IMG/VR virus record: IMGVR_UViG_3300012204_000007
Location: 32,001 to 96,000 of that record
Source of the DNA: a virus
DNA length: 64,000 nt
Strand: one strand, 5' to 3'
Positions 1-27,172 of the stretch are shown one piece after another. Each line of letters opens with the position of its first letter. Position 1 is the stretch's first letter. Made by a program: the position numbers and the translations under genes. The notes under the pieces were generated by a model. It saw only the letters and a list, made by a program, of their open reading frames with translations. It searched no databases and was not told the DNA's origin.

Positions 1-1232
1 GCAACTGCTACACAGGCTTCGCCGCCTATGTTGAAATGGGCGCGGTAGACTTTCCTCCTAGCCGCGAGCAGTTGTTCTATAATAACCGCACCAAGGCAGT
101 TATTGAGAAGGTCAGCGCAGGTCTATTTGAACTTCTGCTAAAGACAAAGTTGGATGAAGTTACTAGTGCGCCAGACCATCGGAGCGCTTGGCATCGGTAT
201 AATGCGTTATCTTACTACTTCAAGAACACAAAGGCTGCGAAGGAACTTACCTATAAAGGTGACGAGTTCGTAGACAACGTTCTGCATGATACGCGATATC
301 TGCATTGGAATCTACAGGGCATTAGCAAGATATCAGCAGGCAGTTATATTGCCTTGTCTAATATCTTCGGTATAAAGAACGATGTTGTAAGAAATAATGT
401 TATCTTTGTTACCGGCCTTGATGATGATGTTAACCCTCATGCTTCTTTTAAGAAGAAGATTAACTATTACATGACCGAGAATGGTATGTCAGCGGGACAT
501 GCCTACCTCATGAATGATGATGTTGACTCTATCTGGTTGAAGCAGGTGCCTCGTGTAACCGCTGATACCATTAAGGCTATCAAGATTCCTAGGACGCCCT
601 CTAGTGGTCCGCGTGATGTTCCTACCTATGATGTATATTCAATTGAGGCGGATGGAAATGTTAAGTACAATGCTCTTACCGCTGTGTCTGTACCGACTGG
701 TAAAAAATTGGTTTATATCAGCCCGCAGGAAATCAAGGAATCCTATAGGATGAACGGTTGTACGCCAAACGAACTCGTGAAGACTCTAGGCAAGCATTAC
801 ATTCTTGTTGTTCTGGCTAAGAACCGTTTTGATAAGTTTTTGCGTAACCACAAGGCCAGTACGGTGAGCGGTGCTTTACAGGATGTTCTAGACTCTTATA
901 TCTCGAAAATCACAAAGGTTGAGTCTACGATGGCCGGTATGCAATATGAAGAGAAGCGATTCTTCAAGGCTATTCAGGCCGACTCACTTAAGGACCCTGA
1001 CCTGCGTAAGTTGGCTATAGCAGTTCAATCAAGCACAGGTAATAAGTCAAACTATGAGAAGGCGCATAGCGTTTATCAGTTTGGTAGGCGCATAGGACTT
1101 CATTTGAAAATGCCTGAGGCCAAGCCAATATTCAGGCTTTCAGATGCCTACCCTCTGATTAACGTCGGTAGTAGGGCTCCGAGGAACCACGTAGTGCTTT
1201 ACTGTAACGCAGTATACAGCGCTAAATCGTAA
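1..1232 (+). CDS. rIIA: rIIA-like protein (5' truncated by the window edge)
   Basis: Frame is open from the window start; GAVDFPPSREQLFY matches the rIIA PSRE-x-L motif; lies directly upstream of an rIIB-like gene. Confidence 0.8.
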   Translation, partial: NCYTGFAAYVEMGAVDFPPSREQLFYNNRTKAVIEKVSAGLFELLLKTKLDEVTSAPDHRSAWHRYNALSYYFKNTKAAKELTYKGDEFVDNVLHDTRYLHWNLQGISKISAGSYIALSNIFGIKNDVVRNNVIFVTGLDDDVNPHASFKKKINYYMTENGMSAGHAYLMNDDVDSIWLKQVPRVTADTIKAIKIPRTPSSGPRDVPTYDVYSIEADGNVKYNALTAVSVPTGKKLVYISPQEIKESYRMNGCTPNELVKTLGKHYILVVLAKNRFDKFLRNHKASTVSGALQDVLDSYISKITKVESTMAGMQYEEKRFFKAIQADSLKDPDLRKLAIAVQSSTGNKSNYEKAHSVYQFGRRIGLHLKMPEAKPIFRLSDAYPLINVGSRAPRNHVVLYCNAVYSAKS

Positions 1233-12785: not shown

Positions 12786-13006
12786 AAGTAACCGTTGTTA
12801 AGTATTACGACACCGATTCATATAACTCACCGCCTCCGAGAGTGGTGGCTGTAGCAAAGAGCACTTCTGCGGCGATGCGCTGGATTAAGGCCGAGGTTGA
12901 TGGTGAGCATGAGGGCTCCTACAATACCTATGCAAAGGGTCACGATGCCCAATGGTGGTTTGAATACGGTACCTTCCGTCTCGAAGAGGTTGAGGTAGTG
13001 GAATGA
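12782..13006 (+). CDS. Hypothetical protein
   Basis: ATGA-coupled. Confidence 0.6.
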   Translation: MKVTVVKYYDTDSYNSPPPRVVAVAKSTSAAMRWIKAEVDGEHEGSYNTYAKGHDAQWWFEYGTFRLEEVEVVE

Positions 13007-13323
13007 CATTTGTTGACGATATAAAAGAGTTTCTAGAAGAGAACCCCACAGACACACATGGTATTACATATTGGTTTGGTGCTACATTCGTAGAGTCTGA
13101 AACACATGACAAGCGTCGTTGGTATACTGTAGAGCATACAATCTTCAAAAAGCGTACGCTACAGTTGGAAGGCACCGACCTAGAGTGGGTCAAGGAAGAG
13201 TATGTGCTTGTGGAGCACTGTGAGCCTGCTACAGAATTGCAGGAGCGTGATGGGCTACCAGAGCCCACCGTATTTGCAGTAGAGCCTTACGAGGTCACTG
13301 AGACGAGGTACCGGCCGATATGA
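13003..13323 (+). CDS. Hypothetical protein
   Basis: ATGA-coupled; RRW...E.C.PATE.QE motif. Confidence 0.65.
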   Translation: MTFVDDIKEFLEENPTDTHGITYWFGATFVESETHDKRRWYTVEHTIFKKRTLQLEGTDLEWVKEEYVLVEHCEPATELQERDGLPEPTVFAVEPYEVTETRYRPI

Positions 13324-13634
13324 AGCCAGAGGATGCATTCACCAAGAAGAGCCTAAAGCGATACAAGAAGATTAGACGTATTGCAGACGACACATATGTC
13401 GCGCTCGGCTATAATATAATTGTCGGTAGAAAGCGCGTCGAAGATGGTAAGTCAGATATTGTCTACTTAGAGGTAAGGCGTGCACACGCCTTCAACGAGG
13501 GCTACACCAGCCATTGCTTTTGTTTTGAGTCCATGCCAACAAAGCGCGAAGTCACCCAAGTCATTAGGCTGTTGATACTGACGGCGATGAATGTCACCGT
13601 TACTACAGAAGGAGAGAAGCCATGTGGATTCTGA
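13320..13634 (+). CDS. Hypothetical protein
   Basis: ATGA-coupled. Confidence 0.55.
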   Translation: MKPEDAFTKKSLKRYKKIRRIADDTYVALGYNIIVGRKRVEDGKSDIVYLEVRRAHAFNEGYTSHCFCFESMPTKREVTQVIRLLILTAMNVTVTTEGEKPCGF

Positions 13635-13943
13635 CAGTTATCGTAACGGTATTCGGTATCGTAGTAGGTAGAGAAATAGTCAAAACAACGTTTGAAAATA
13701 GTCGCAAGACTAACTATAAAGGCATGGTTTTGTTTTCTATGTGGGTTGTTACATACGTAATATATATATGGGTGGCAATCTGATGGTCTTTATATATATA
13801 TGTATTCTGCTGATTGTATGGTTCATCATATGGCGACCCAGTATGGTCGATGCATTCAAGAATAGAAAGACCAACGACGCCGGTATAAAGCAACTAGACA
13901 ACATCGAATACATCGAAGACATTCTTAAAGAATGGAAGGATAA

Positions 13944-14150
13944 ATGAAACTTACATTAACAGGCAGCGAGTGGATGTTAGAGATTGACACCGATATCAAT
14001 AGACATGGAGTAGGAGTGACACCAATGTCGCTTACTCATCACTCCTTTCCCACTCATTACACAAGGGACGGATATCCAATGGGAATTGAATTCTTCCCAG
14101 CAGGTGAATGCGACATTGCAGGTTATTGGGTGGAGGTAGATAGCCGATGA
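13944..14150 (+). CDS. Hypothetical protein
   Basis: RBS AAGGA; coupled. Confidence 0.5.
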   Translation: MKLTLTGSEWMLEIDTDINRHGVGVTPMSLTHHSFPTHYTRDGYPMGIEFFPAGECDIAGYWVEVDSR

Positions 14151-14788
14151 ACTATACAACTGAGAATGCACAAGAATTGATTGAAGAGTGGGACTACCAC
14201 AATCGTAGGCATAACTGCTATTATGAGCAGTCTGATGATGCTGGTCCCTATGAAGAATGCCCAGCCGAACACGCGACACTGCGTGCATTCATGATGAGCA
14301 AGGGATTCCCTGTCAGTTACAAGAATGATTGGGTTCTTGGACGTGAACTAAACGAACCTAATTATAGATTGAAGAGCGAAGCAATATATGGACCAAGGCG
14401 GGTAAACTCATTGTCTACCCGCCTAAAGGAAAGTATTGAGCGTCTAGAATCCAAAGGCCACGCGGTAGAAAAGATTGAGACCCCAGAGGAACAGGAAGCC
14501 TTCGACACCGCATGGAAGACGCCTCTACGAGACAGGTACAAGCAAGTGTTGACAGACAACACGGACGCCGTGCTGAGGAATAGGGCTGAGAGGGCCAGAA
14601 ACGACGGTCAGAGCGCCGGTAGTAATGAAGTGGACCCAGGACACCATGAGTATTATAAGAGCCGTTTAGACAGCATAGAGAGTGTTCTTGTAAATGTGGT
14701 TAGAAAGTTGGACTGGATTCAAGAGCGGTTGGGCGAACTCGCGCCGGTAGTAACAGATGATGATTATAACTGGTATGACGACCTATGA
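14147..14788 (+). CDS. Hypothetical protein
   Basis: 213-aa ORF; RBS GGAGG; ATGA-coupled. Confidence 0.65.
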   Translation: MNYTTENAQELIEEWDYHNRRHNCYYEQSDDAGPYEECPAEHATLRAFMMSKGFPVSYKNDWVLGRELNEPNYRLKSEAIYGPRRVNSLSTRLKESIERLESKGHAVEKIETPEEQEAFDTAWKTPLRDRYKQVLTDNTDAVLRNRAERARNDGQSAGSNEVDPGHHEYYKSRLDSIESVLVNVVRKLDWIQERLGELAPVVTDDDYNWYDDL

Positions 14789-14931
14789 GCGCCGGTAGGA
14801 AATTTAATCAAGAAGATATTGATGAAATCATTCCCAAAATTCACGGTAACAAAGCAACTGTAGTTTGGTTTACTAATGGTCAATACTACTGCTCTTGTGG
14901 TGGCAACAATGAACTTATACTTCGTGAATAA
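14785..14931 (+). CDS. Small hypothetical protein (48 aa, not in the ORF track)
   Basis: ATGA overlap with the previous gene; translates MSAGRKFNQEDID...YYCSCGG...LRE. Confidence 0.45.
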   Translation: MSAGRKFNQEDIDEIIPKIHGNKATVVWFTNGQYYCSCGGNNELILRE

Positions 14932-14938
14932 GAAAAGA

Positions 14939-14981
14939 TTATCCACAAGATAGGTTAACCTGTGGATAAAGTTGTGGAAAA
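14939..14981. promoter_or_regulatory. Cluster of DnaA boxes
   Basis: TTATCCACA at 14939-14947, inverted TGTGGATAA at 14961-14969, and a 1-mismatch TGTGGAAAA at 14973-14981. Confidence 0.55.
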
Positions 14982-15637
14982 AGAGTTAACACCGTAAACA
15001 AAAGTAATATGTGTAAACTGTGTAGGGGATATAGTGTATTGGAAATATACAAATGCGCCAAATTTAAGCCTATTTTATGTACAATTGGCCTAATTTTATC
15101 CAAAAAAGTGTACCAATGGCCCAATATACCCAAAAATGACCCAAAACCTCATATGCCATACAAAACCGGGCCGGTAGTCAGTCTTTGTTATACTTACTAG
15201 ATATTATTATAGGGATTGACTACCGCGCCCGTTGAATATAGCATATCACAGCGTTCAATTACCATTTTGTAAGTTGAATATGACATTTGGGAAGGTTAGG
15301 TATCACTTGATGCATTAAAATAGACCATTTGATAGGGTAAAATATATACCAATACAGACCATATGGTCTGTCTCGTAATGTTTATTCTACGGATATCGTT
15401 GTTGAGTGAGGTTTTGAACCATGAGATAATCTGAATTTTCCAGGAGATTCTACGCCCTATCGTAATACTCTCTGATATAGATATGTCAATTATTTCATAA
15501 ATGACAATACTGTTCAGGAGATATATACTTTCGTCGTAATCTATTGTGATATTGTTATCTCAATTGTTTAAATGGGAAAATGTTATGGGAATTGCCCACC
15601 ACCGTAAGGTGGTGGGCAAAACCAAAGGATATAAGAA

Positions 15638-15655
15638 AAGGCCCCGAAGGGCCTT
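15638..15655 (-). terminator. Intrinsic terminator (UUCG loop, U-tract on the minus strand)
   Basis: AAGGCCC-CGAA-GGGCCTT preceded by A-rich sequence, 3 nt past the stop of 15659..15910. Confidence 0.75.
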
Positions 15656-15658
15656 GAC

Positions 15659-15910
15659 TTATGCGACTCGCAGCAGCACGTCTTCACGAGCCTCAGCCAG
15701 CGTCATGTCATAATGACCCCAGCAAGCGCACTGGTTCAGGTCACTATCGTAGTAAAGATAGTGAGTTGAAAAGGCTCGACTGGGGAATGAGTACGCGGGC
15801 TGTCTGACTACCGCCCAACCACAAAGCATGTTCTCTACCTCTTCGGCGGCCTCGTCGCGGATGAAAGCAACCAATTCACCGTGCAGGCCGGTGACAGTGT
15901 GAATGTTCAT
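15659..15910 (-). CDS. Hypothetical protein
   Basis: RBS AAGGAG; WGHYD motif; followed by a terminator. Confidence 0.7.
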   Translation of the reverse strand: MNIHTVTGLHGELVAFIRDEAAEEVENMLCGWAVVRQPAYSFPSRAFSTHYLYYDSDLNQCACWGHYDMTLAEAREDVLLRVA

Positions 15911-15919
15911 TATTACTCC

Positions 15920-16441
15920 TTAGAAGTATCGGTTGTACTCATACTGGTACTTGGTGGGCATGTCTTCTAGACTCATGGTATCACCATTCTTGGTCCAGCG
16001 CAAGGGAGTACGACCACATGGGTGATGGAAGTATACGCGCTGAGGGAGACGGTGTGCCTTGTGAACTGCCTTATCGCAGATGCAGCACGTACCAACTACC
16101 GCGTGGTCTGGACGTACTGAGGGCGTTACACACCGCTCCGGAGTGGCACCAACCTTACGGGCAACGATGCGCCAGCGAGGACCATGATGTGCCTCTGCAC
16201 CAGCAATTGCATGCGCAATCTCATGTAACACCACATCGCGGACCTCGGCGGCCGGTAGCAGAGTTACATAGTGCTTTGATAGGCTGATATTAATGGGCTT
16301 CCAGATGGTATCGTTCCACTCCTTGATGAATTGAGTTTGACCAAGCCTGGTCTTAGAATTGTCAAACTTGAACTCAAGGTGACCGACACCATGGAGAGCC
16401 ATCAGGGCCTTTGCATGCTTCTCTACCTGTCTAAGTTCCAT
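15920..16441 (-). CDS. SprT-like zinc metalloprotease
   Basis: LHEIAHA (HExxH) and HHGPRW motifs; leaderless promoter TTGACG-18-TAAGGT. Confidence 0.88.
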   Translation of the reverse strand: MELRQVEKHAKALMALHGVGHLEFKFDNSKTRLGQTQFIKEWNDTIWKPINISLSKHYVTLLPAAEVRDVVLHEIAHAIAGAEAHHGPRWRIVARKVGATPERCVTPSVRPDHAVVGTCCICDKAVHKAHRLPQRVYFHHPCGRTPLRWTKNGDTMSLEDMPTKYQYEYNRYF

Positions 16442-16523
16442 GGTGTAACCTTACCTCATATTCTCTACCGGCGTCAAGACGCTGTGTGCTTTTGCCCACC
16501 ATGTTTCACTGTTGGGCATTTAC

Positions 16524-16647
16524 AAAAGATACAACAAGGCCCGAGCATCGTCGTGGCGATGCTCGGGCCGGTATGTGAAGGTGGATTGACCGTCAAACTC
16601 CTTATGCCCTAGCCTGCCGACTGATAGGGCCACCTTCGTTATGTTGT
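16524..16647 (-). ncRNA. Candidate structured small RNA (about 120 nt)
   Basis: Promoter TTGACA-17-TACACT (16682-16654); 13-bp terminator stem 16538-16569; internal pairings GAAGGUGG/CCACCUUC and CCCUA/UAGGG; no RBS-led ORF. Confidence 0.5.
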
Positions 16648-16698
16648 GTAACAAGTGTAGCAGACGGGCGGTAGCGTGTCAACTACCGCCCGTCGTGG

Positions 16699-17049
16699 TC
16701 ACTCAGCCAGACGCTCAGCCTCAAGAGCCAGCGCGAGCAGGTCCTTGTCGAAACGACCACGCTTACCAGCCGGGTGACCGAGCAGCGCGCGGGCGTGCTC
16801 CGTGGTGACAGTGACAGGCTTGGTCGTCTTGCGACCACCCGCGAGCATCACGACATTCACGGTGATGGTCCGCTTCTCAGCCTCGGAAGCGACCACGTAG
16901 ACCTTGCTGCGGTTGGCCTTGTTGAAGGCGGCGATGATGTCCGGGTTGAGTCGGCCTCGGGTACCGGGAGCCTTGACGCCCTCGGGCTTGGCCTCGTTGA
17001 ACCACTCGCGTACGGCGCTGGCGGGAACGTTGGTCTTCTTGCTAGCCAT
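16699..17049 (-). CDS. Lsr2-like DNA-binding protein with two RGR AT-hook modules
   Basis: SAVREW...GTRGRL..DIIAAF and a second GKRGRF; RBS AAGGAG; promoter TTGACA-17-TAGAGT. Confidence 0.8.
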   Translation of the reverse strand: MASKKTNVPASAVREWFNEAKPEGVKAPGTRGRLNPDIIAAFNKANRSKVYVVASEAEKRTITVNVVMLAGGRKTTKPVTVTTEHARALLGHPAGKRGRFDKDLLALALEAERLAE

Positions 17050-17266
17050 GGTGTTTCTCCTTAGAGTTGTTGTTGGTTGGCTTATGAGTGATACTCTACG
17101 CGATTCTGGTGTTGCTGTCAAGCCTTTTGAGAAGTTTTAACCGCCGAACATGATGCCATAGACGATGGCACCGAGCATCGCAAGGACTGGCCACATGCCG
17201 ATTATGGCAAGGCCAAGACATAGACCGAGCGTTACCATGGCGGCTATTAATATGCGGTCGATACAA

Positions 17267-17635
17267 TCACCGCCTTTCTTCAATGCTGACAGTGATGAAA
17301 TTGTGAATCGTGGGGGTGTTACACATGTGGTTAGTGAGACTCACCCGACACGTGTTGCAACACTCACGCATGGAATACGTCTTACCGTCAGCATCCCGCG
17401 CGAGGTATTCCTTCTCAGGAAAGCGGAAATCATCAGGCGAGAGATAGGGAGAATCTCCATCCTTCTTGACCTCGGGAGCCTTGTCAGACTTGACTACCGG
17501 CGCGCCGGTAGTAGAATCAGAGAATCGCATACCCTCAGACTCAGCCTTAACAAGTGCCTCTTTTGCGGCATTGGAGAACTTGCCACGGCCAGGCTTAGCC
17601 AGACCCTTTGAAACGAGGTAATCACGCTTGTTCAC
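17267..17635 (-). CDS. Hypothetical protein (N-terminal GRGK hook-like motif, C-terminal Cys/His cluster)
   Basis: RDYLVSKGLAKPGRGKFS; ECCNTC...H.C; RBS AGGAGG. Confidence 0.65.
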   Translation of the reverse strand: MNKRDYLVSKGLAKPGRGKFSNAAKEALVKAESEGMRFSDSTTGAPVVKSDKAPEVKKDGDSPYLSPDDFRFPEKEYLARDADGKTYSMRECCNTCRVSLTNHMCNTPTIHNFITVSIEERR

Positions 17636-17838
17636 TTTGCCTCCTGAGGAATTGAGTAATCAAGCGGAACAACCACGACATTGTTTTCACAAATCATGGG
17701 ACCATCGTTGGCTAGGTCTCCGCTGTTATGCACATAGACAGCCTCTGGATAGGTTGCCAATCGGAAGACGGCAGGACAGCCTTCACAGAAGACGCGGTTG
17801 GAATACGGGACGTTGAGCACGAGGGTATGAAGGTGCAT
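17632..17838 (-). CDS. Hypothetical protein
   Basis: ATG at 17838 after RBS AAAGGA; GTGA overlap. Confidence 0.55.
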   Translation of the reverse strand: MHLHTLVLNVPYSNRVFCEGCPAVFRLATYPEAVYVHNSGDLANDGPMICENNVVVVPLDYSIPQEAK

Positions 17839-17905
17839 GGTGTTCCTTTCTCTTGAGATAAGCATACCCCATTGTAATGGGTATGTCCAGCCCTATGGGC
17901 TGGCA

Positions 17906-18211
17906 TCACCACCAGGGGCGAACAATAGGGTCAATGTACTCGGAGAGGTTCACGCCGTGGTCGCAGGCGACTTCCTCAGGGTCATTGCCGAGAACAAAGA
18001 AGATGAATGATGTACGACCATCGGGCAGGTCGACGTACACAATGGCCTCATCTACGTTGGTAACTAGGTCAACAGCCTCCTGCACGGAACTGACTTCCTG
18101 AGTCTCCTCTGGATTCCATGTATCGTCACCCACGCTTGTGACCTTGCAGCCCACGTTGGTGAGACCGTCAAGGATGAGAGTGATGGCTTCGCGGTCGTTG
18201 CTGGGCTTCAT
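17906..18211 (-). CDS. Hypothetical acidic protein
   Basis: RBS AAGGAG; promoter TTGTAA-17-TACGCT; VLGNDPEE...D motif. Confidence 0.7.
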   Translation of the reverse strand: MKPSNDREAITLILDGLTNVGCKVTSVGDDTWNPEETQEVSSVQEAVDLVTNVDEAIVYVDLPDGRTSFIFFVLGNDPEEVACDHGVNLSEYIDPIVRPWW

Positions 18212-18382
18212 TGAAACTCCTTGGTTCGTTTGGCTGGTAAGTACAGCGTAACAGAAAATCCCAGTGATTACAAGGCTCTATCGTAATGGGATTATATGGG
18301 ACGCGGGCAAAATGAAAATGCCCAACACGATGGTGGGCAAAACGGTAGGATATAGAAAAGCCCCGCCGAAGCGGGGCTAATC

Positions 18383-18733
18383 TTAGTCGTTAGCGCAACG
18401 AACCGGGTCGTCGGCGTCCATGCCCTGGCGATAGAGCGGAGCGCCGTCCGGGTCGGTGGCCTGAGTCCAGCCATCGGACTCATCGGCATTCCAGTCGTAG
18501 TCCCAAACCTTTCCGCACGACATGCACTCGCCGTGCAGGTCATCAATCCAGTCGAGGTCGCCACCAGTGCACCAGCGCTGGTCGCGCTCACACGGAGCCT
18601 CGCCGTCGTTGTCGTAGAAGTGGTCGGCTTCATAGTCCGCTTGCGCGTCCATGTCCAGTTGCTGCTCGAATCGCCACGCGGCGCCATCCATGATGGGCTC
18701 GCCGTCTTCGTTGGTCCATCCATAATTGCTCAT
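18383..18733 (-). CDS. Highly acidic hypothetical protein with Cys cluster
   Basis: D/E/W-rich ORF followed by the GCCCCGC-CGAA-GCGGGGC terminator. Confidence 0.7.
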   Translation of the reverse strand: MSNYGWTNEDGEPIMDGAAWRFEQQLDMDAQADYEADHFYDNDGEAPCERDQRWCTGGDLDWIDDLHGECMSCGKVWDYDWNADESDGWTQATDPDGAPLYRQGMDADDPVRCAND

Positions 18734-19007
18734 GGTGCAATCCTACTCGTCATCGTTGGGGTTGTCAAGGACCGGCACGCCATCTTCAAGATGATAACGC
18801 GGGTCATGCGTGAGGCATGAATGGGTTTCGTCTGGTGTGTCATACATATATTAATTACACTACCGTCGTATTTAAAAGTCAAGTCTTTAATGGAAATGCC
18901 CACCATCCTCCGGATGGTGGGCAAAACCGCCGGTAGGCGGTTTTGCTATTAACTGAATGCCCCTATTACAATAATGACAATGACAACAATAACAATTGCC
19001 ACCATCA

Positions 19008-19553
19008 TTACTTAATTCCCTTCTCACGTCGCCAGGTAATCCAGGTAATAGCCTGAATCTGGTTTACCGAGATACCGGCTTCGTTGGCAGCCACAGAATA
19101 CGCGGCAGCCATATCCCGATAGATGCGCTTACCAATCTTGCGTGTCTTATCGGTAAACACCTGGTTCATGGCGATATCGAATGCGTGACGGTCGATGGTG
19201 GCAATGTTTGCCTTACCATTGGTGGCAATTGCTGTTGCGAAGTTGCGTGTCTTATCCCCACGCATAACATCTAGCGGATGCTCACCGTCGAGAATGCGCT
19301 GCGCATATGCAGTATGAATACTGATATGTCCTGAGACAATGCCGGTATCGAATGCGTTACGCGCAAGTCTGACATTGAGATTCCATGTTTTGAGCGGAGA
19401 TAGCGCGGCAATAACACCGGCACCGCGCCACACATTATTAGGGGATAATTCGAGCGCGAGGTTATGAGCCTCGTTATACCAGACCATTCCGGCGGCATTG
19501 TCGTCAGCGGTGGCGCGCGCAAAGCACGCGGCGATATTCTCTGAATACGTCAT
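19008..19553 (-). CDS. Possible HhH-GPD / alpha-helical DNA-glycosylase-like protein
   Basis: G-x-K-T, TIDRHA and QAITW motifs; leaderless ATG at 19553 after TTGCGC-17-TACAAT. Confidence 0.55.
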   Translation of the reverse strand: MTYSENIAACFARATADDNAAGMVWYNEAHNLALELSPNNVWRGAGVIAALSPLKTWNLNVRLARNAFDTGIVSGHISIHTAYAQRILDGEHPLDVMRGDKTRNFATAIATNGKANIATIDRHAFDIAMNQVFTDKTRKIGKRIYRDMAAAYSVAANEAGISVNQIQAITWITWRREKGIK

Positions 19554-19716
19554 GGCACCATTGTACGCGCTAGGAGCAGACGGCGCAAGCCCCAGCGGAA
19601 ATGCCCAATAGGTAGTGATGGTGGGCAAAACCAAAATAGTATTGCGCTGGCGGCCGGTATGCCGTATTGTTGTCTTTGTCAGGGGGAACAGCCCCCAATC
19701 AGACTTAGGAGCAATC

Positions 19717-19914
19717 ATGGCTCGACGCAGGACTCGCACTGTCAGCATTCCGACCACGTTCGTTGGCACGTTCTATGACGTGCAGGCGGGTGTCTACGTT
19801 GCCACTCGCAGGGATGGCAGCCTCACCGTGGGCGCTATCAACAAGCGCGGCGTCAATGTGCAGGCTGCGGACTTGGTCATCGGTTCTGACCCGGCTGTCT
19901 ACACGGAGCACTGA
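19717..19914 (+). CDS. Hypothetical protein (inverted cassette)
   Basis: Promoter TTGCGC-17-TATTGT; RBS AGGAG. Confidence 0.6.
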   Translation: MARRRTRTVSIPTTFVGTFYDVQAGVYVATRRDGSLTVGAINKRGVNVQAADLVIGSDPAVYTEH

Positions 19915-19915
19915 C

Positions 19916-20062
19916 ATGGATGAGGTCGATGAGGTCATCCAGTCGTGGGCCATGGTAGCGGAAGTTATCTATGAGCGCAGGACGGCAGGTGACCACACTT
20001 GGTCAGGCTTCCTCAGTGAGTTTTTGACTGAGGTCGACAAGGCGCGCGAGAGCGTATCGTAA
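19916..20062 (+). CDS. Hypothetical protein (inverted cassette)
   Basis: Follows the previous stop; terminator ACCAAAACCCCAC/GTGGGGTTTTGGT directly after. Confidence 0.55.
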   Translation: MDEVDEVIQSWAMVAEVIYERRTAGDHTWSGFLSEFLTEVDKARESVS

Positions 20063-20172
20063 CCAAAACCCCACTGTAAAAGGTGGGGTTTTGGTATGTC
20101 TTTCGTAAATGCCCAGCACAAGATGTTGGGCAAAAGCGTTAGATATAAGAAAAGGGCCCGAAGGCCCTTGAC

Positions 20173-20373
20173 TTAGTCTTTATGGAGTCTGACTGTCACT
20201 GTCTGATGGAATGGAGGCTTATAGCGGTCGACGCTCCACCCAAAGAGAGAGTGCGGGTCCTCATTGACAGCGGCCATGGCGAAACCGACAATCATGTCCT
20301 CTGAAACGGCACCGATGTTTTCCACCATGACCTCGGTCACGGTCTTTCCACGGTCAATTGAACGAATGTTCAT
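20173..20373 (-). CDS. Hypothetical protein
   Basis: ATG at 20373; followed by the AAGGGCC-CGAA-GGCCCTT terminator. Confidence 0.6.
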   Translation of the reverse strand: MNIRSIDRGKTVTEVMVENIGAVSEDMIVGFAMAAVNEDPHSLFGWSVDRYKPPFHQTVTVRLHKD

Positions 20374-20374
20374 A

Positions 20375-20548
20375 TCAGAACTCCACTCGAATCTCAATGG
20401 TGCGATACCAAACGGTATCGTCCTTGGAAGCCATGATGCTGGCAACGGCGGCGATGCCCTCAGCCACGTTGTCACCTTGATAGAAAGGCATGTCCACTGG
20501 TTCCTGTGGGTTGGCGCTGGTGCTCTGGACCTTCTGAATAACTCTCAT
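20375..20548 (-). CDS. Hypothetical protein (57 aa, not in the ORF track)
   Basis: Leaderless ATG 6 nt after TTGACA-17-TAGTCT; translates MRVIQKVQSTSANPQEP...IRVEF. Confidence 0.6.
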   Translation of the reverse strand: MRVIQKVQSTSANPQEPVDMPFYQGDNVAEGIAAVASIMASKDDTVWYRTIEIRVEF

Positions 20549-20646
20549 GTCTAAAGACTACGCTCTCTAGGTGGCTGTGTCAAGTGGATATGGAAATGCC
20601 CAACACTTCGTCTGGTGGGCAAAACCGGGCCGGTAGGCCCGGTCTG

Positions 20647-20880
20647 CTAGTAGTCCACGTCCTCGAATTCGTATTCCTCATCAAACGAGGTAACGATTGT
20701 GATTGGGTCGAATGGTCCGACAGAGATGAAAGTGTGAACCGCATCTTCATCAACAATGTCGAGTTCGATAAAGTCTCCATCGTCATTGATGGAATAGATA
20801 TATCCAAGCAAGCATCCGTCATTATCGAGAAGGAAGTCATTGTTCTCGATAACGTACGCGAACACTACGTCAGTTTTCAT
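20647..20880 (-). CDS. Very acidic small protein
   Basis: D/E-rich with almost no basic residues; terminator follows. Confidence 0.6.
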   Translation of the reverse strand: MKTDVVFAYVIENNDFLLDNDGCLLGYIYSINDDGDFIELDIVDEDAVHTFISVGPFDPITIVTSFDEEYEFEDVDY

Positions 20881-21046
20881 TGGTATCCCTTACTCTCTTT
20901 GCAATGTCATGGAGCAACTTGCTAGCGTGCCGCTCGGCTGACCGAAACGAACGGAATGCTCTTGGCTTGCCATCCTTGGAAACACGAATGCCGGTATAGA
21001 GACTACGAATGTAGTATCGCCGACCGTACCTTTCTACTTCAAACAT
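20870..21046 (-). CDS. Basic small protein (58 aa, not in the ORF track)
   Basis: TAATG coupling to the upstream gene; translates MFEVERYGRRYYIRS... Confidence 0.5.
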   Translation of the reverse strand: MFEVERYGRRYYIRSLYTGIRVSKDGKPRAFRSFRSAERHASKLLHDIAKRVRDTNEN

Positions 21047-21294
21047 TAGGACACTTTGACCGTGTCTCCAACACGCACAATCTGACCGTAAAACTTACGG
21101 TTTTTGTACGGGTCGGGGCCGACGAAGTAGTGTGTTACGCCCTGAGGCATATCGACCACGCGACCGCTGTATTCGTTGCCAAAAACAGAAGTTGCTTCCA
21201 GCCTGACAAGAAAACCATTGCCCTCGGCAATAGTATCTTTGATTGCCTTTTTTGACTTGGGCCTTCCAGCGCCAATCCAGATACCTTGCGTCAT
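21046..21294 (-). CDS. Hypothetical protein
   Basis: RBS AGGAGG; promoter TTGCAT-18-TACCAT; VGPDPY..RK.Y motif. Confidence 0.7.
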   Translation of the reverse strand: MTQGIWIGAGRPKSKKAIKDTIAEGNGFLVRLEATSVFGNEYSGRVVDMPQGVTHYFVGPDPYKNRKFYGQIVRVGDTVKVS

Positions 21295-21543
21295 GATTCC
21301 TCCTAGAGTTTGGTCCACCAGAATGGTAGCACAGTGGCAAGCCACCATGCAACCACGAGCCAGGCGATTGTAAGAACAACCTTCCCGCGTGTGGTCATGA
21401 GTAAAGGCTAGCACGATTGCCCGAGATACGCAAGCGCAATCGTAATGGCAATATTCAGGGTGAAGGGCATTGTGGAAATGCCCACCACAGTGTTGGGCAA
21501 AACCAAAGGATACAAACAAACCCCGGTTTCCCGGGGCTGTTTG

Positions 21544-21771
21544 TCAGAAAGCGAACCCGAACTTGGTTCCGCTGTCGTTGCTGTCCGCCTCGACACCACT
21601 ATGCCACTCCCACCCGAGAACGGTAGCGAGCACACCAGCCGCGTGTCCGTGGTTCCATGCGGTTGACTTGGAAAGGTCGAGCGGCGTCGTACGCTGCACG
21701 CCGCCACCCTTCGCACGAATCTTTGGGGTGCCGTTCACGTTCACGTACTCAGTACGAATGATGTTGCTCAT
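21544..21771 (-). CDS. Hypothetical protein
   Basis: TAATG coupling; terminator follows. Confidence 0.65.
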   Translation of the reverse strand: MSNIIRTEYVNVNGTPKIRAKGGGVQRTTPLDLSKSTAWNHGHAAGVLATVLGWEWHSGVEADSNDSGTKFGFAF

Positions 21772-21956
21772 TAGTTCTCCTGAAAGCGTCGGTTGACATG
21801 CTTGGACTTACGGTTATACTTGGTACCCGAAGGTACCGGCGAAGTTGCGGAAGACTTACGCAATTCTATCATTGCGTCAATGTAATGGCGGTTGCCAGCC
21901 TTGCGTGACTGATTACGCCGATTCTTACCGCTCTGGCGATTGGTCCTGTTTGCCAT
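21771..21956 (-). CDS. Basic hypothetical protein
   Basis: TAATG coupling; R/K-rich. Confidence 0.6.
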   Translation of the reverse strand: MANRTNRQSGKNRRNQSRKAGNRHYIDAMIELRKSSATSPVPSGTKYNRKSKHVNRRFQEN

Positions 21957-22174
21957 TAGTCGACCGCCATTCCAATAATGCCCTCGCGCTTGAGAATACG
22001 AATCTCAGTCTCAGCGTCCTTACGTAGATTCAGAGTGGCCGCCTTAATGAAACGCTCGCGGTCAAACTGTTCATTGAATTCTCCGCACATGTCAGCAAAG
22101 TCACAGACAAGTGCGAGATTGGCGCGGTTGGCGTCGAGGGTGTGGGCGATGGCTTCAAAGTGCTTTCTGGTCAT
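21956..22174 (-). CDS. Hypothetical protein (MTRKHF...FDRERF type)
   Basis: Leaderless after TTGACT-17-TAGTCT. Confidence 0.7.
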   Translation of the reverse strand: MTRKHFEAIAHTLDANRANLALVCDFADMCGEFNEQFDRERFIKAATLNLRKDAETEIRILKREGIIGMAVD

Positions 22175-22305
22175 GGGTAAAGACTAGCCTATCGTAACAG
22201 ATGAGTCAAGTAGTGATGGGCAATGATTTGATAATGCCCACCATCAATCTTGTGGTGGGCAAAATGAGAGAATAAAAGAAAAGGGCCGGTAGGCCCTTGA
22301 CTTTC

Positions 22306-22626
22306 TCAGTATTCGCGGTCGCTCTGATAATACTGCTCTTCCCAGTAGTCACGCTCGCGCTGAGCCTCCATCATGTCGTACTCCCGTGCGGCCAGCGTCT
22401 CCCACTGCTGTTCGGTCTCGCGCTCTTCCCAGTCGAGCACGGTCTGTAGTTCGTCGCGGTCGTGTTGGGTGACGGACTCCATGTCAGACTCTGACACGTA
22501 CCGGCGAGATTCGGGGTCGGTCTGGTCGTGCTCCCACGTGGGGTGGTTGTCATCCCACTCTTCGGCGTGCGCCTGGCGCGCGGTGTTGGTACGGCTGTCG
22601 GGGTCAAAGGCTTCGATGTAGGTCAT
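22306..22626 (-). CDS. Acidic W/Y-rich hypothetical protein
   Basis: Leaderless ATG at 22626 after TTGACA-18-TACGAT; terminator follows. Confidence 0.7.
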   Translation of the reverse strand: MTYIEAFDPDSRTNTARQAHAEEWDDNHPTWEHDQTDPESRRYVSESDMESVTQHDRDELQTVLDWEERETEQQWETLAAREYDMMEAQRERDYWEEQYYQSDREY

Positions 22627-22807
22627 GTGACCATCGTACTTCACGATTCCCAGGGATGTCAAGGCCCTATCGTAATGGCGTGAAGTGGGGTGGCGGGTCT
22701 TTTGAAAATGCCCACCATCTGCATGTGTTGGGCAAAACCAAAACGCATTGAAAATACCCCGCTTGACATAGCCACTACTCCATGTCAAGCGGGGTAAGAT
22801 GGTGGGG

Positions 22808-23029
22808 TCAGACGTGCTTGAGTTCGCGCAGGGCCGCTTCGGCAATGTCGGTGCCGAACTTGTCCGCGAGGAAGATGCGCGAACCCATGAGGTCGCCCGT
22901 GCGGCGCAGGTCGCGGTACTTGCCTCGTCCGCTCGCGTACTCGACAGCGGTCAGGATGAGCGCGTTGCGCTTGGCAGCCTTGTCGGCGTGGTTGTGAAGG
23001 ACGGTGGCGGGAGTCGGGTTCTTGGTCAT
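22808..23029 (-). CDS. Hypothetical protein
   Basis: Leaderless after TTGACA-18-CATAAT; 15-bp stem terminator near 22755-22796. Confidence 0.7.
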   Translation of the reverse strand: MTKNPTPATVLHNHADKAAKRNALILTAVEYASGRGKYRDLRRTGDLMGSRIFLADKFGTDIAEAALRELKHV

Positions 23030-23209
23030 GTCTCTATTATGGGCCATGTGGGAGAGTGGTGTCAACAGATAATTTGAAAATGCCCAACAGGTGTTGGGCA
23101 AAACCCCGAGTTAGCGGGGTTTTGCGACAAAGGGCTTAGGCGATGGTAACCTAGGCACTGGCGGCGGGTATTGAATCTGCATAATTCCTCCTAATTCATG
23201 ATAACACAA

Positions 23210-23524
23210 TTACTTGCAAAGACCATGAACCGTGTAACCATAGTCCTGTGAGGTGGTTCCCTGCAATATGGCTTTATTGACAATGGCCATATTGCCGGTA
23301 TAGGTAACATCACCGTTCGGAAGGGTGACCACCGCGTGATGCGGGTAGCCATCCTTGGGCTGACAGCGCTCCATGAGCACAACGGGGCTTCCAGCAGGGT
23401 GGGGGCGCGTGTCAGCGGCAGGATTGGCCTGCGCCTGGAATGATGTGAAGGCAACATGAACCGCGAAGGCGAGAATCGCAAGAATCTTCACAATATGTGC
23501 GTCACGCTTGGTCGGCTTGTTCAT
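23210..23524 (-). CDS. Secreted or membrane-anchored small protein
   Basis: Signal-like N-terminus ending AQA; leaderless after TTGCGC-18-TAATCT. Confidence 0.65.
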   Translation of the reverse strand: MNKPTKRDAHIVKILAILAFAVHVAFTSFQAQANPAADTRPHPAGSPVVLMERCQPKDGYPHHAVVTLPNGDVTYTGNMAIVNKAILQGTTSQDYGYTVHGLCK

Positions 23525-23953
23525 ATCCCAAGATTAGCACATGTTATCGTAATCGCGCAATATAGGATACCGGGCATTCCCAAAATGCCCAACACTGCGT
23601 GTGTTGGGCAAAAAGATAATTTTCAAGCGGATTATTGACTTTATCGTAATCGTGTGATACCGGGTGCTGGGCATAGTTGGTTGCCGAAGGCAACCATTGC
23701 ATGTGCATAGGCATACTGCCGGTATGCCAGGGTGCCGCCGGTATGGTCACATACCCTCAGTACGTTGTCCCATGCATTGTTTGTCTCACAGTGTGGTCTT
23801 CCCCCAGTCCACAGAATGGACACTTTCAAACTACTTTCATGTGTTTCCGCAGGTCAGAGCGTTGCGCCCAAGTTTTTACCTTTCTGCTGGGCATATTCCC
23901 TATGCGTGTCCTACCTTGGTACTGCAACACAAACCACTACCTAGGAGCACACC

Positions 23954-24139
23954 ATGGCAAGCACAAGCGTCCCTCGGGCGGAGATTCAGCCGGGCATGAT
24001 TCTGCGCTCGACGCGGTGGAGTGAACTGCTCATCCTCAGCGCACCGAACAGTCGCGGCATGGTTCGTTGTGAAACGTACGATTCCACGGGCACGGCAATT
24101 GTCGTTGTCCTTCCCTACAAGGTCATTAGGTGGCTCTGA
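23954..24139 (+). CDS. Hypothetical protein
   Basis: RBS AGGAG; first gene of the divergent unit. Confidence 0.6.
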   Translation: MASTSVPRAEIQPGMILRSTRWSELLILSAPNSRGMVRCETYDSTGTAIVVVLPYKVIRWL

Positions 24140-24140
24140 C

Positions 24141-24653
24141 ATGTGTAACCAGACCCTCGCTCATGGTGTGACCACCGTGTGCAGCAAGGTCCGCCCGGAA
24201 TGCCACGCTCCCTCGGGCTACAGCGTCAAGGACTACAGCGCAAAGCAAGCACCCAATGGCATCGCACCCCGTGACCGTATGCGTGACGTCATCCTCGCAT
24301 TCTGGGAGTCGCAGGGGGTCGCACGTTGGGTGTCTGGCGGCAAGGGTGGGGGCGGCCGGTGGCAGGTGCGCGACATGGTGAACGGTGGCGCGGAATGGCT
24401 TCCTCTCGCTGACGGTACCGAATGGGGCAGTGGCCGTGCGCAGGTCGCAGAGTTCTCCCACATCGTGTCAACCAACAATCGTGGCGCATGGTGCGCTTGC
24501 AATCTGCTTCCTGAATCGGGAGCAACTAATGCGGCACGTGGGGAGATGAGCATTGTGACCCTCTCGCCCGGTGCACGTGCCTTGCTCGCGGCGTGGCCTG
24601 CCTACTGGACCAAACACTACGCGCGGAAGGCTTCACTCGCTCGGCTGTCCTGA
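24141..24653 (+). CDS. Hypothetical protein with degenerate HNH-like motif
   Basis: EFSHIV...RG...NL......N..RG pattern; ATG at 24141. Confidence 0.5.
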   Translation: MCNQTLAHGVTTVCSKVRPECHAPSGYSVKDYSAKQAPNGIAPRDRMRDVILAFWESQGVARWVSGGKGGGGRWQVRDMVNGGAEWLPLADGTEWGSGRAQVAEFSHIVSTNNRGAWCACNLLPESGATNAARGEMSIVTLSPGARALLAAWPAYWTKHYARKASLARLS

Positions 24654-24710
24654 CAACACTGCCCGGGGGAGCATCCGCTCCCCCGGGCCAACACTGAAAG
24701 AGAGACCATC

Positions 24711-24956
24711 ATGACTCGCTCTGCCACTCCCCCGGTCGCTGTTTGGTTCGGCGCTCCCGCCTTCCTTGACTATGACAGCCATGGTGACCTGACCCTCTGG
24801 TTGGGTGCGCCGAACAGTGCCTACCCGCGTGCGCTCATGTCACAGAACAAGTGCGACAGCACGGTGTGGGACATGCTCATGACCCTGTTCGATGCCGACG
24901 ACCTGGCCCACCTAGTCAAGCAGCGTGACGCATGGTCAAGCGTTAATGACTTCTAA
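24711..24956 (+). CDS. Hypothetical protein
   Basis: Followed by a terminator. Confidence 0.55.
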   Translation: MTRSATPPVAVWFGAPAFLDYDSHGDLTLWLGAPNSAYPRALMSQNKCDSTVWDMLMTLFDADDLAHLVKQRDAWSSVNDF

Positions 24957-24960
24957 TCCC

Positions 24961-25000
24961 ACAGGAAGCCCTCAGATTGGCTCTGAGGGCTTCCTGTTTT
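24961..25000 (+). terminator. Intrinsic terminator
   Basis: ACAGGAAGCCCTCAGA/TCTGAGGGCTTCCTGT stem followed by a T-run. Confidence 0.8.
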
Positions 25001-25331
25001 ATCTGTGGGTACCGACCCCATTGGGACCCCCCGCACGTCTCCTAGGGCCCATTCTGTGCGTCTGAGACGCCTTCCCACGTGCGCACTATCCTGTGCTGCG
25101 CATAGCGCTCTCGGGGTAGTATCATACAAGATAGATATTTTTTAACATTTACAAATATTGATATAATAGTCTAGTCTTTTTGTAGACTTTCAGCGGGACT
25201 CCATGTCCATCCCCACCGCTTGTTACACGGGGTATGATGTTTATGAATACCACACGGTGGAGAACCCACTGGGCAGTCCGGTGAATATTTCCAACAAACT
25301 TCTATAAGTTCATCGTTGTCATATATACACA

Positions 25332-25547
25332 TTACTCTTCTACCGGCCCCGGTATAAAAATATCTGGGTTGTTGTGACCCTTGTTCTCATGATGTTCATA
25401 TAGTTCGTTGGCGGTATCTTCATCAAGATGAGTTAGTATAGCCATACCAATGTCATACAGTCTCATTAGTAGTGCTATTTGAACAAGGTCTTGTTCTGAG
25501 GGCTCACTTACTAATACCGGCGGTAGTTCTTCGTTCCAGTCGTTCAC
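25332..25547 (-). CDS. Hypothetical protein
   Basis: Coupled last gene of the leftward operon. Confidence 0.6.
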   Translation of the reverse strand: MNDWNEELPPVLVSEPSEQDLVQIALLMRLYDIGMAILTHLDEDTANELYEHHENKGHNNPDIFIPGPVEE

Positions 25548-25747
25548 TCTTCATCGCTCCATTCAAATGTCATAGTACAATACATTGTAACATCTAAAGT
25601 AAATTGGTCTGTCCATGTTGTTTCTGAATCTACGTCAACCGTAGTTAGAACAGCATTTTCAGGTAGTTTTAGTGCATTGAGGGCAGCAATAATCTCTGCC
25701 TTACCGCCGCTGCCTACATTTACCTTAACGCTCTTGTGAACCCTCAC
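25544..25747 (-). CDS. Hypothetical protein
   Basis: GTGA coupling. Confidence 0.55.
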   Translation of the reverse strand: MRVHKSVKVNVGSGGKAEIIAALNALKLPENAVLTTVDVDSETTWTDQFTLDVTMYCTMTFEWSDEE

Positions 25748-26904: not shown

Positions 26905-27172
26905 CGCCTGTCTCTATCTCCCAAAAGTTTTCCATACGTAGCAAAGTGCCCCTGTCATCCATAGGGATAAGGTCCAACTTAATGGATGCATTTTCTCTTG
27001 TATAGTATGGTCTCGTTAGTACGTCCATCATGTCATAATCATAATCTTGACCCAACTCAATCTCTATAATGCCTGTGCGACCACATATTACTCGCTCTCT
27101 CTTGTCGTCATCAATCTCGACAAGAAAGACCTTGTATTGCTTGGTCTTAATATGCTGCAATCCATTATTCAC
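26885..27172 (-). CDS. Hypothetical protein
   Basis: GTG start with a GGAG RBS, overlapping the thyX end. Confidence 0.5.
   Translation of the reverse strand: MNNGLQHIKTKQYKVFLVEIDDDKRERVICGRTGIIEIELGQDYDYDMMDVLTRPYYTRENASIKLDLIPMDDRGTLLRMENFWEIETGDDEEEE

Follow-up and report, generated by a model that had tools for sequence, protein, structure and literature searches.

The DNA considered here (hereafter the window) is a stretch of 64,000 nucleotides, bases 32001–96000 of the 120,830-base virus record IMGVR_UViG_3300012204_000007 of IMG/VR (linear class, CheckV completeness 94%), in which a short imperfect palindrome recurs twelve times between the small genes of a GC-rich island. The island lies at 47.6–57 kb of the linear record, and it stands out by its composition; GC content is 0.51–0.54 at 16–26 kb of the window versus 0.43–0.49 over the rest of the record, and the palindrome copies coincide with the GC-rich part. 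Judged by its genes, the phage of the window is a soil actinobacteriophage, which looks lytic: the capsid gene shows 73–75% DNA identity to 35 Streptomyces phages, the nearest relatives of the AAA ATPase adjoining the island are found in Rhodococcus and Microbacterium phages, and a nearly base-identical phage is present in soil runs from four studies. The island and those of its genes to which a name could be given are the following:

15640–25125: GC-rich island, about 52–54% GC, about 28 small open reading frames (ORFs)
15920–16441: gene for a SprT-like protein (Pfam/PHROG match)
16699–17049 and 17267–17635: two genes for Lsr2-like DNA-binding proteins (Pfam/PHROG match)
19008–19553: DUF7178 gene (Pfam/PHROG match)

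Almost every gene of the island is encoded on the minus strand; 25 of the ORFs belong to the minus-strand side of the array (one inverted pair included) and three to a divergent operon on the plus strand. Searches with Pfam and/or PHROGs covered 21 of the about 28 island ORFs; besides the genes just listed only a few unnamed PHROGs were matched, 16 of the 20 ORFs scanned with Pfam had no family at the thresholds used, and no helix-turn-helix or repressor family was found among the 21. Proteins of the Lsr2 family bind AT-rich DNA without sequence specificity. Rfam gave no match at E≤0.1 across window positions 14000–26000, and a single sub-threshold match to Sigma70_r4 fell on a 48-aa frame far from the island. 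The DUF7178 gene has, immediately on its 3′ side, a tiny ORF of about 19–20 aa with a very hydrophobic product (18952–19011, minus strand), and a similar hydrophobic ORF follows the DUF7178 gene of a relative, L063 (about 1228–1290, sense orientation).

The palindrome was defined by the strict pattern TGCCCANCA-N(2–9)-TGNTGGGCA, of which the window contains 11 exact matches versus 0.00 expected from 100 shuffles. A looser scan of the whole record (TGCCCA-N(4–25)-TGGGCA) gained a twelfth copy at 19602–19627, whose left arm carries AATA, and placed all twelve inside 15593–23610 of the window and none elsewhere in the 120,830 bases; a tolerant scan, requiring at least 17 of the 20 half-site positions, returned the same 12 and thus no degenerate extra copies in the genome. 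The copies start 372–1826 bp apart. An earlier reading of the window, made from its letters alone (the sequence-only reading), had described twelve intergenic copies some 370–1830 bp apart and not noticed outside 15.5–23.9 kb, and had proposed a scan of the full genome with the motif; both the count and the confinement are borne out by that scan. It had further stated that the stems often contain a mismatch, which is also the case: position 7 is complementary in only 5 of the 12 copies (read by eye). None of the 24 arms has lost the outer bases TGCCCA or TGGGCA. In the window the elements are 20–27 bp long, two of the twelve being 27-mers, and on the plus strand they are flanked by AAA on both sides in 10 of 12 cases, the exceptions being copy 15593 (TT on the left) and the inverted copy 16493. 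Along the window the copies are:

15593–15618, minus strand: copy 1, the last of the array along transcription, at the border of GC-rich and AT-rich DNA; 11-bp stem, 4-nt loop, RNA fold of −22.6 kcal/mol, terminator 15655–15638 just upstream (minus strand)
16493–16518, plus strand: copy 2, inverted relative to the genes, the sole copy with T-rich flanks on the plus strand; terminator 16569–16538, and a TTGACG promoter 15 nt downstream (minus strand) with the leaderless ATG of the SprT-like gene
18319–18339, minus strand: copy 3, 21 bp, weak stem; terminator 18378–18359, additional GGGCA half-site at 18305
18897–18923, minus strand: copy 4, canonical 27-mer with a 12-bp stem and a GGA triloop on the sense strand; listed as terminator-like by the terminator scan, DNA fold of −14.5 kcal/mol, z −6.6
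19602–19627, minus strand: copy 5, the twelfth to be found, AATA in its left arm (plus strand), stem down to 6 bp; DNA fold of −4.7 kcal/mol, z −1.8, and TTGCGC-17-TACAAT-6-ATG of the DUF7178 gene 13 nt downstream
20110–20132, minus strand: copy 6, terminator 20169–20152; together with copy 5 it brackets the sole plus-strand cassette
20597–20621, minus strand: copy 7, TTGACA-17-TAGTCT-6-ATG 13 nt downstream
21479–21499, minus strand: copy 8, 21 bp; terminator 21538–21519, promoter 45 nt downstream, additional half-site at 21465
22235–22261, minus strand: copy 9, 27 bp; terminator 22298–22281, promoter 25 nt downstream, additional half-site at 22217
22709–22734, minus strand: copy 10, terminator 22796–22755, promoter 22662–22633
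23081–23100, minus strand: copy 11, 20 bp and the shortest; promoter 23065–23036, scoring 11/12
23586–23610, minus strand: copy 12, the head of the array, between divergent promoters and without a gene end upstream

Read along the minus strand, the intergenic unit is a composite with a recurrent order: the stop codon of the preceding gene is followed by a terminator of variable sequence, often by TATATCC, then by GGTTT, the palindrome, TTTYC, a short A/T-rich spacer and a promoter. Each terminator is a G+C-rich hairpin, whose tetraloop is UUCG, GAAA or TACC, together with a T-run; seven canonical ones in the array are listed by the scan. The promoters consist of a TTGACA-like −35 box, 17–18 nt, TAnnnT and 6 nt before an ATG, which is thus located where transcription should begin, and the mRNAs of the cassettes are predicted to be leaderless and made from host SigA-type promoters; leaderless mRNAs are a typical pattern in Actinobacteria. 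A hairpin of −9 kcal/mol or stronger lies within 45 nt upstream of 9 of the 12 window copies, a tenth (22709) has the terminator found by the scan, and in the window and its relatives together an upstream hairpin precedes 44 of 58 copies. Downstream, 8 of the 12 have TTGNNN-16..19-NANNNT-5..8-ATG within 100 nt and two further promoters, after copies 18897 and 18319, were read by eye. In the window and nine relatives the full leaderless promoter pattern follows 31 of the 56 palindromes with 100 nt of downstream sequence, versus 2.2% of shuffles; this count is that of the looser rule, which has the shuffle control, a strict rule, which demanded TAnnnT and a −35 box with four or more of its six bases matching, catching 22 of 58.

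The distance between palindrome and promoter is restricted as well. In 18 of the 31 promoter-bearing copies the gap to the −35 box is 13–17 nt; the other gaps in the window are 25, 25, 45, 45 and 46 nt (one of 45, that of copy 18319, read by eye), and the longer spacers hold an additional single half-site and a second motif, ATTACGATAG. Single extra half-sites are also found beside longer promoters in the relatives. Copy 23586 at the head of the array has TTGCGC at a distance of 25 nt on the minus strand and TTGACT at 24 nt on the plus strand, and the homologous head copy of a relative (L055, position 999) is likewise separated by 24 nt from the TTGACT that faces the same divergent operon; since the window copy has no gene end upstream and is located between divergent promoters, its link is to the promoter, independent of an upstream gene end. 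The sequence-only reading had placed most copies between a terminator and the next promoter and had taken each interval for a self-contained unit of promoter, small ORFs and terminator; on the minus strand this picture holds (terminators at 10 of 12 copies, promoters at 8 and at two more by eye), and a modular array punctuated by the palindrome is supported. Three terminators beside palindromes (18925–18945, 20622–20640 and 22281–22298) share CCTACCGGC in loop and stem, the complement of GCCGGTA. Ahead of the divergent operon, between its first gene and the head palindrome with the TTGACT promoter, runs an ORF-free leader of about 300 nt (window 23611–23953) with two half-site-like strings, CTGGGCATA, at 23668 and 23888, for which there is no Rfam match.

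Relatives of the array were sought in several collections. Pattern scans of IMG/VR gave single-site contigs only (42 and 2), so that no multi-copy contig besides that of the window turned up there. Megablast with the island as query gave no match among 50,697 phage records, and a more distant blastn gave two short matches to Lsr2 genes only, one of them in Streptomyces phage Ankus, which has no such palindromes in the 24 kb around the match. A single-protein search for related loci in IMG/VR returned nothing, while protein searches indicate that closer relatives exist (proteins 91% and 90% identical), as well as contigs of 108–120 kb. A metagenome scan found 25 contigs with the element, ten of them with at least two copies. 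Among these L055 (9.7 kb, 57.5% GC) is homologous to the island and syntenic with it and has 14 elements, L066 has 10, and the gene content differs among the window, L055 and L066; the proteins of L055 are merely 37–68% identical to those of the island, and the outer bases of the palindrome are nevertheless conserved across these genomes. GC content of the related modules is 54–61% on metagenome contigs and 66% in a 7.8-kb locus of a metagenome-assembled genome (MAG).

A scan of 185,579 species genomes gave single matches in 22 of 23 loci and no bacterial genome with many copies, that is, no dispersed palindrome family. At the 23rd locus the copies lie in a foreign segment of low GC, formed by the final 4 kb of a 312-kb contig from an Actinomycetota MAG (L176, 15340–19838), which holds all six exact copies of that 4.0-Mb genome and homologues of three island proteins. 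Its GC content of 57–64% abuts a chromosome at 68–75% (about 71%), and the junction, about 40 nt ahead of the first palindrome, truncates a gene for a luciferase-like monooxygenase; the segment could be an integrated element or an assembly chimera. As the palindromes occur in an array in the MAG as well as in phage contigs, they belong to a gene module found in very different genomic backgrounds. In another lineage bearing the DUF7178 gene (L079) a different palindrome, TACCCCCTWRAGGGGGTA, occurs five times, each time after a terminator, and 16 nt before the −35 box in the two copies measured; a different palindrome at the same place fits a binding protein that co-evolves with its site. Other DUF7178 contigs of IMG/VR (L084, L106 and L078) have conserved intergenic hairpins or cassettes of their own, such as CACCGCTTCGGCGGTG in five copies in L084 and, in L106, a cassette of about 80 nt that is found between genes six times, and on two further IMG/VR contigs (L074 and L076) TTGCAA-N4-TTGCAA is present 10 and 7 times in coding and non-coding contexts.

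The relatives also reveal the canonical form of the element. A 27-bp version, present in 29 of 46 copies there versus 2 of 12 in the window, starts with TGCCCAMCA and continues with three inner pairs that are free in sequence yet complementary, around a 3-nt centre, before the arm recurs in mirror form; among 23 distinct 27-mers the inner triplets are CCC/GGG (11), CAC/GTG (5), CCT/AGG, CCG/CGG and TCC/GGA (one each). Mean RNA folding energy is −16.6 kcal/mol in the relatives versus −13.0 in the window, where inner complementarity is largely lost and several copies barely fold (−4.7 to −8.7 kcal/mol) with the outer six bases still invariant. Arms that stay intact while the stem has decayed indicate that something reads the sequence of the arms. 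Position 7 points the same way: in 49 distinct copies it is A-T (27), C·T (14), A·G (3), C-G (3), A·C (1) or G·G (1), counts without covariation and as predicted by independence, which weighs against a pure hairpin.

Starting from the anatomy of the cassette, its conservation, its covariation and strand asymmetry and the absence of a recombinase, all of which are observed, we favour, tentatively and at somewhat less than an even chance, a palindrome that serves as a protein-recognition or insulator site of the terminator–promoter cassette and is able also to fold as a hairpin. It would be the conserved core of an intergenic control cassette repeated through an actinophage gene module, with the putative recognition site, about −50 to −77 upstream of each promoter, being read by a sequence-specific protein from the module's own genes; host genomes lack the motif, so its reader should be a product of the module. 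As operator or insulator the site may coordinate, or insulate from each other, some eleven small transcription units, and its dyad, folded on the sense strand, may act as a back-up terminator and perhaps as a structure extruded by supercoiling. As a side effect the repeated cassettes would provide short homologies at operon borders, where changes in gene order and orientation are indeed found, much like the PeSLs, composite promoter–terminator cassettes of T4-type phages (PMC2839356, Arbiol et al. 2010; PMC4122927, Comeau et al. 2014). A promoter-linked recognition site accounts best for the fixed position, the two-sided promoters at the head, the arms conserved regardless of the stem, and the palindrome of L079, and it is the alternative that the sequence-only reading had offered next to recombination, namely a binding or hairpin site, toward which the evidence leans. 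That a protein binds, which protein this is, and in which direction it regulates are steps that we infer.

Several observations weigh against this account. No DNA-binding regulator was recognized among the 21 island ORFs searched, the nucleic-acid-related matches being the two Lsr2-like proteins and the SprT-like protease. The arms in the window are 2–9 nt apart, and a rigid dimer on duplex DNA cannot follow such a variable gap, so that independent monomers or recognition of the folded form would be needed. A site centred near −64 is unusual for a repressor, and an activator is not obviously needed as the −35 boxes are already near consensus. Further, the inner pairs of the stem covary: in 32 27-mers there are 15 two-sided cell changes versus 4.6 in shuffles (a value that none of 500 shuffles reached), with a covariation score of 0.142 versus 0.066, and pairing is lost when the partner column is slid. 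Such figures can be inflated by kinship among the aligned sequences; five different complementary triplets are, however, hard to obtain otherwise. On the sense strand the canonical centre reads C-GNA-G, with GNA (GAA, GTA or GGA) in 17 of the 23 distinct 27-mers and the complement TNC in one, the flanks are T-rich on that strand in 53 of 58 copies, and a variant in L055 ending in GGGTT-TTTTC resembles an improved terminator. Covariation, GNA centre and T-rich flanks point to selection on a strand-specific hairpin over selection on two duplex half-sites; judging from these patterns, a foldable dyad with a strand-specific loop is also favoured by something, perhaps by the same reader.

Three further features of the module were noted. 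The second motif, the example of which is given first, lies within promoter spacers or 3–4 nt upstream of the −35 box, and it is followed here by the operon at the array head and its most conserved product:

22668–22676, minus strand: second island motif, ATTACGATAG, just upstream of a −35 box
23954–24956, plus strand: divergent three-gene operon at the array head
24141–24653, plus strand: gene for a 170-aa Cys/His protein, at the array head in the window, in L055 and in the MAG contig

Other intergenic copies of ATTACGATAG start at 15458, 18279, 20055, 21439, 22190, 23545 and 23642 (minus strand), within 15371–23650 of the window. In L055, L066, L063 and L079 the more general form TTACGA(T/C)RG lies in promoter spacers or immediately upstream of them, and it is clustered past the ends of the arrays. 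It may be a second operator; its repressor-type position would make two layers of control possible. In the form TATCGTAA this second motif was considered as a genome-wide strand-biased signal (16 forward, 1 reverse), a reading that was rejected, as the copies outside the island are in coding DNA and on the coding strand. The only two exact TTATCCACA strings (DnaA boxes) of the 64-kb window are located at 14939–14947 (plus strand) and 14961–14969 (minus strand), with one-mismatch copies at 14973–14981 and 15096–15104, all four in an AT-rich non-coding stretch just past the last palindrome (14939–15104). In L055 and L066 TTATCCACA/TATCCACA boxes are likewise found past the last palindrome, and the stretch may represent a replication origin attached to the module. 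The 170-aa head protein has 88 homologues, none of them named, with invariant C21, H22, H107, C118 and N130 and nearly invariant C120 and N121. Its AlphaFold model (pLDDT 91.3) has I-PpoI as best Foldseek match (E 0.07), and in VIA-align about half of 41 rows are HNH-type domains at Z ≤4.2; a profile search of PDB sequences gave one match (E 0.7) and a Pfam scan of 35 family members nothing relevant. The model thus gives no more than a hint of a nuclease of the HNH/His-Me type, with no support from sequence.

Among the alternatives, a purely RNA-level role fares best, although we consider it unlikely: the palindrome would be a fail-safe intrinsic terminator or stabilizer of 3′-ends, and its stem would have been kept uniform by duplication of cassettes and gene conversion. 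The sense-strand hairpin is followed by TTTY or TTTTC in the 53 copies mentioned, the inner pairs of the stem covary, RNA folds average −16.6 kcal/mol in the relatives, the GGGTT-TTTTC variants of L055 look like terminators, and copy 18897 was listed as such; moreover, the stem-loops of PeSLs were reported to be effective terminators (PMC2839356). However, a good terminator is already present just upstream in the 44 of 58 cases, and those terminators use tetraloops while the palindrome has a 3-nt centre. The head copies (23586 in the window, 999 in L055) have no upstream gene to terminate, copy 16493 is inverted and has A's after the hairpin on the gene strand, and only 1 of the 12 passes the scan rule (5 T in 8). 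Finally, the weakly folding copies keep their outer six bases, as do genomes whose proteins are only 37–68% identical.

A second possibility is that the palindromes are primarily hot spots of recombination, where homologous or template-switch exchange between copies moves, inverts, deletes or circularizes units, perhaps together with a nuclease of the module, in the manner of PeSLs; this we regard as improbable. The sequence-only reading had proposed to check whether gene-content differences between relatives break exactly at the palindromes. The 13 gene families common to the window and L055 define 12 junctions in the window, five of which are breakpoints of gene order; they fall on 5 of the 7 junctions with a palindrome and on 0 of the 5 without (our own tally; Fisher one-sided, about 0.03), and all scorable changes of order or orientation between the window and its relatives are at palindrome-bearing junctions. 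One case is a cassette of the array:

19640–20095, plus strand: inverted cassette between copies 5 and 6, with promoter, ORFs of 65 and 48 aa and a bidirectional terminator

Its promoter and 5′-untranslated region (5′-UTR) match L055 5336–5397 at 83%, in an orientation opposite to all other matches, and in L055 they drive an unrelated ORF; its first ORF has a homologue in L063 in sense orientation, so that the cassette is inverted relative to both L055 and L063. Also in favour are the junction of the MAG, located about 40 nt before its first palindrome, the weak HNH-type fold matches of the Cys/His head protein, and the mini-circles and indels documented for PeSLs (PMC2839356).

On the other side, the five breakpoints stem from about two events, and the palindrome junctions are operon borders too, where rearrangement is tolerated anyway; breakpoints there are therefore not proof of site-specific recombination. 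At each end the inversion stops about 14 nt outside the palindrome; a crossover within the palindromes would have swapped the flanks, and no such swap is seen (read by eye). Two genes have been inserted in the interior of a cassette, where there is no palindrome, and window-specific genes are not enriched beside palindromes (9 of 11 versus 19 of 25 of all genes). No recombinase was found, the HNH assignment lacks sequence support, and contigs from three other soil runs bridging copies 15593, 16493, 20110, 22235 and 23586 are colinear with the window. No rearranged joints were listed in the contigs of four soil runs over 13000–27500, contigs being unable to show rare forms; three of these runs are of low depth, so that their uncovered parts carry no meaning, and one of the four may be the source of the window itself. 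The cassettes are probably seams of mosaicism, although recombination need not be their function.

Rather doubtful is a strand-specific DNA hairpin extruded by negative supercoiling as in phage N4 and read, beside promoter and DnaA-box region, by a protein of the module or by a replication or transcription factor. Extrusion in N4 is reported to require a C:G closing pair and a 3-nt loop with 5′ G and 3′ A (PMC4496689), which the C-GNA-G of the 17 distinct 27-mers matches, and the terminators of the phage itself use tetraloops instead. Recognition of a folded stem would explain why a variable loop length is tolerated, and the array ends, in L055 and L066 as here, by the region with the DnaA boxes. 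In the same source N4 is also alike in that a conserved stem with such a loop is located in a phage early-type region and that conserved stem bases coexist with free but complementary ones; the N4 hairpins, however, have stems of 5–7 bp, are on the template strand and are read by the virion RNA polymerase. Here the stems are 9–12 bp, ordinary SigA-type promoters follow, and the GNA loop is carried by the sense strand, which for these adjacent promoters is the non-template one, the opposite of N4. Further, just 1 of the 12 window copies retains a GNA triloop, and nearest-neighbour DNA folding shows no difference between the strands. A search for an N4/T7-type RNA polymerase (PF00940) gave no match, and as its control was positive in 0 of 14 genomes it is uninformative. 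One elaborate scheme, which we hold to be just as doubtful, would combine these elements: GNA hairpins extruded upstream of SigA early promoters would be read by a module protein, possibly the Cys/His head protein, thereby insulating or timing early units by an origin at the DnaA boxes, and nicking would drive the shuffling of cassettes between phages of very different GC content.

Integron-like attC sites or mobile palindromes of the repetitive extragenic palindromic (REP) type, worked by a site-specific or HUH recombinase, are hardly credible as an explanation and are excluded as far as sequence can tell. Searches of the 120,830-base record, 94% complete, for Phage_integrase (PF00589; E≤0.01), Resolvase and Y1_Tnp (PF01797) gave no match, with positive controls for all three (14 of 14 genomes for the first). 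The recombinase search over the rest of the genome that the sequence-only reading had proposed thus turned up no tyrosine, serine or Y1 (HUH-type) family. The attC core consensus is RYYYAAC/GTTRRRY, and attC sites measure 57–141 bp and have inner L boxes (R″-L″...L′-R′) and extrahelical bases. The imperfect palindromes between gene units are alike in position, and some arms, in the AAC/GTT variants, do fit the core strings to which the sequence-only reading had pointed: the left arm in 4 of 12 copies and the right arm in 6 of 12. Overall the match fails, as both arms fit in only 2 of 12 (23081 and 23586), and elements of 20–27 bp are far shorter. Integrons have an integrase and promoterless cassettes with a common Pc, whereas every unit here carries its own promoter and terminator; together with the two genes inserted away from palindromes this means that the analogy is not borne out. 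In contrast to REP sequences and their REP-associated tyrosine transposases (RAYT), there is neither a Y1 transposase match here nor a dispersed chromosomal family, no many-copy bacterial genome having appeared in the scan of species genomes.

Of the known systems the PeSLs come closest. They too are small motifs that join a terminator to a sigma70-type promoter and recur, in a plastic region, between small genes without a known function; the units are transcriptionally self-contained, the stem is relatively conserved, and differences between relatives are found at these junctions. They are, however, from T4-like phages of Gram-negative bacteria, not from an actinophage, and have the T4 early-promoter consensus and GGGG..CCCC stems, whereas the stem is TGCCCA..TGGGCA here, in a genome with Lsr2-like genes and a Streptomyces-phage-like capsid gene. 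Unlike PeSLs, the present element has a separate variable terminator ahead of the palindrome, leaderless mRNAs (as predicted), invariant outer arms and, in the relatives, a GNA-centred 27-bp form. Mycobacteriophages of Cluster O have a 17-bp palindromic repeat, TGTTCGGNNNCCGAACA, in 34 copies in Corndog, and one gene indel there is flanked by 17-bp direct repeats (PMC4351075). This is likewise an invariant short inverted repeat of an actinophage with a variable 3-nt centre, many copies of which lie between small genes or close to their starts, in the company of SigA-like leaderless promoters; in the same account it is genome-wide and of fixed spacing, in contrast to an element of variable length confined to one 8-kb island and to a fixed place between terminator and promoter.

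Phage repressors with many sites are a further point of comparison, the conserved inverted repeats (CIR) of phiC31 among them. In phiC31 and L5 the repressor sites are multi-copy (12–30), highly conserved and intergenic (PMC4557955), and many near-identical intergenic sites in one genome are what is found here as well. The stoperators of L5 are, however, asymmetric and act within transcribed regions while the present sites are upstream of the −35 box in a phage that looks lytic; and there a cognate repressor exists, while none was identified among the 21 island ORFs searched. Composite cassettes of the PeSL kind and multi-copy palindromes of actinophages are therefore already known, and what is new is the three-part cassette with leaderless promoters and a palindrome with invariant arms, covarying core and GNA centre that is confined to one transferable module. 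Word searches of the literature, not sequence searches, found no description of the element, and no claim is made that it is unpublished.

Should the element be only a conserved back-up terminator, the finding would be an ordinary one. Actinophage genomes are full of lineage-specific repeated intergenic motifs, the function of which is mostly unknown; the present one has an unusually clear anatomy, metagenomic relatives with covarying stems, and a parallel palindrome at the same place in another lineage. The module travels, as a 53% GC island in a 45% GC phage, on contigs of 54–61% GC, and as a segment of 57–64% GC next to a 71% GC chromosome, and one idea is that a less AT-rich, SigA-driven module could escape silencing by the host's Lsr2 and at the same time deliver Lsr2 mimics of the phage. 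The array offers, ready-made, a collection of short and strong actinobacterial promoters that bring their own terminators. It also is a tractable case for asking how a phage coordinates and insulates a battery of small early genes, whether its cassettes double as seams of mosaic evolution, and whether stable GNA-loop DNA hairpins have a regulatory role beyond phage N4.

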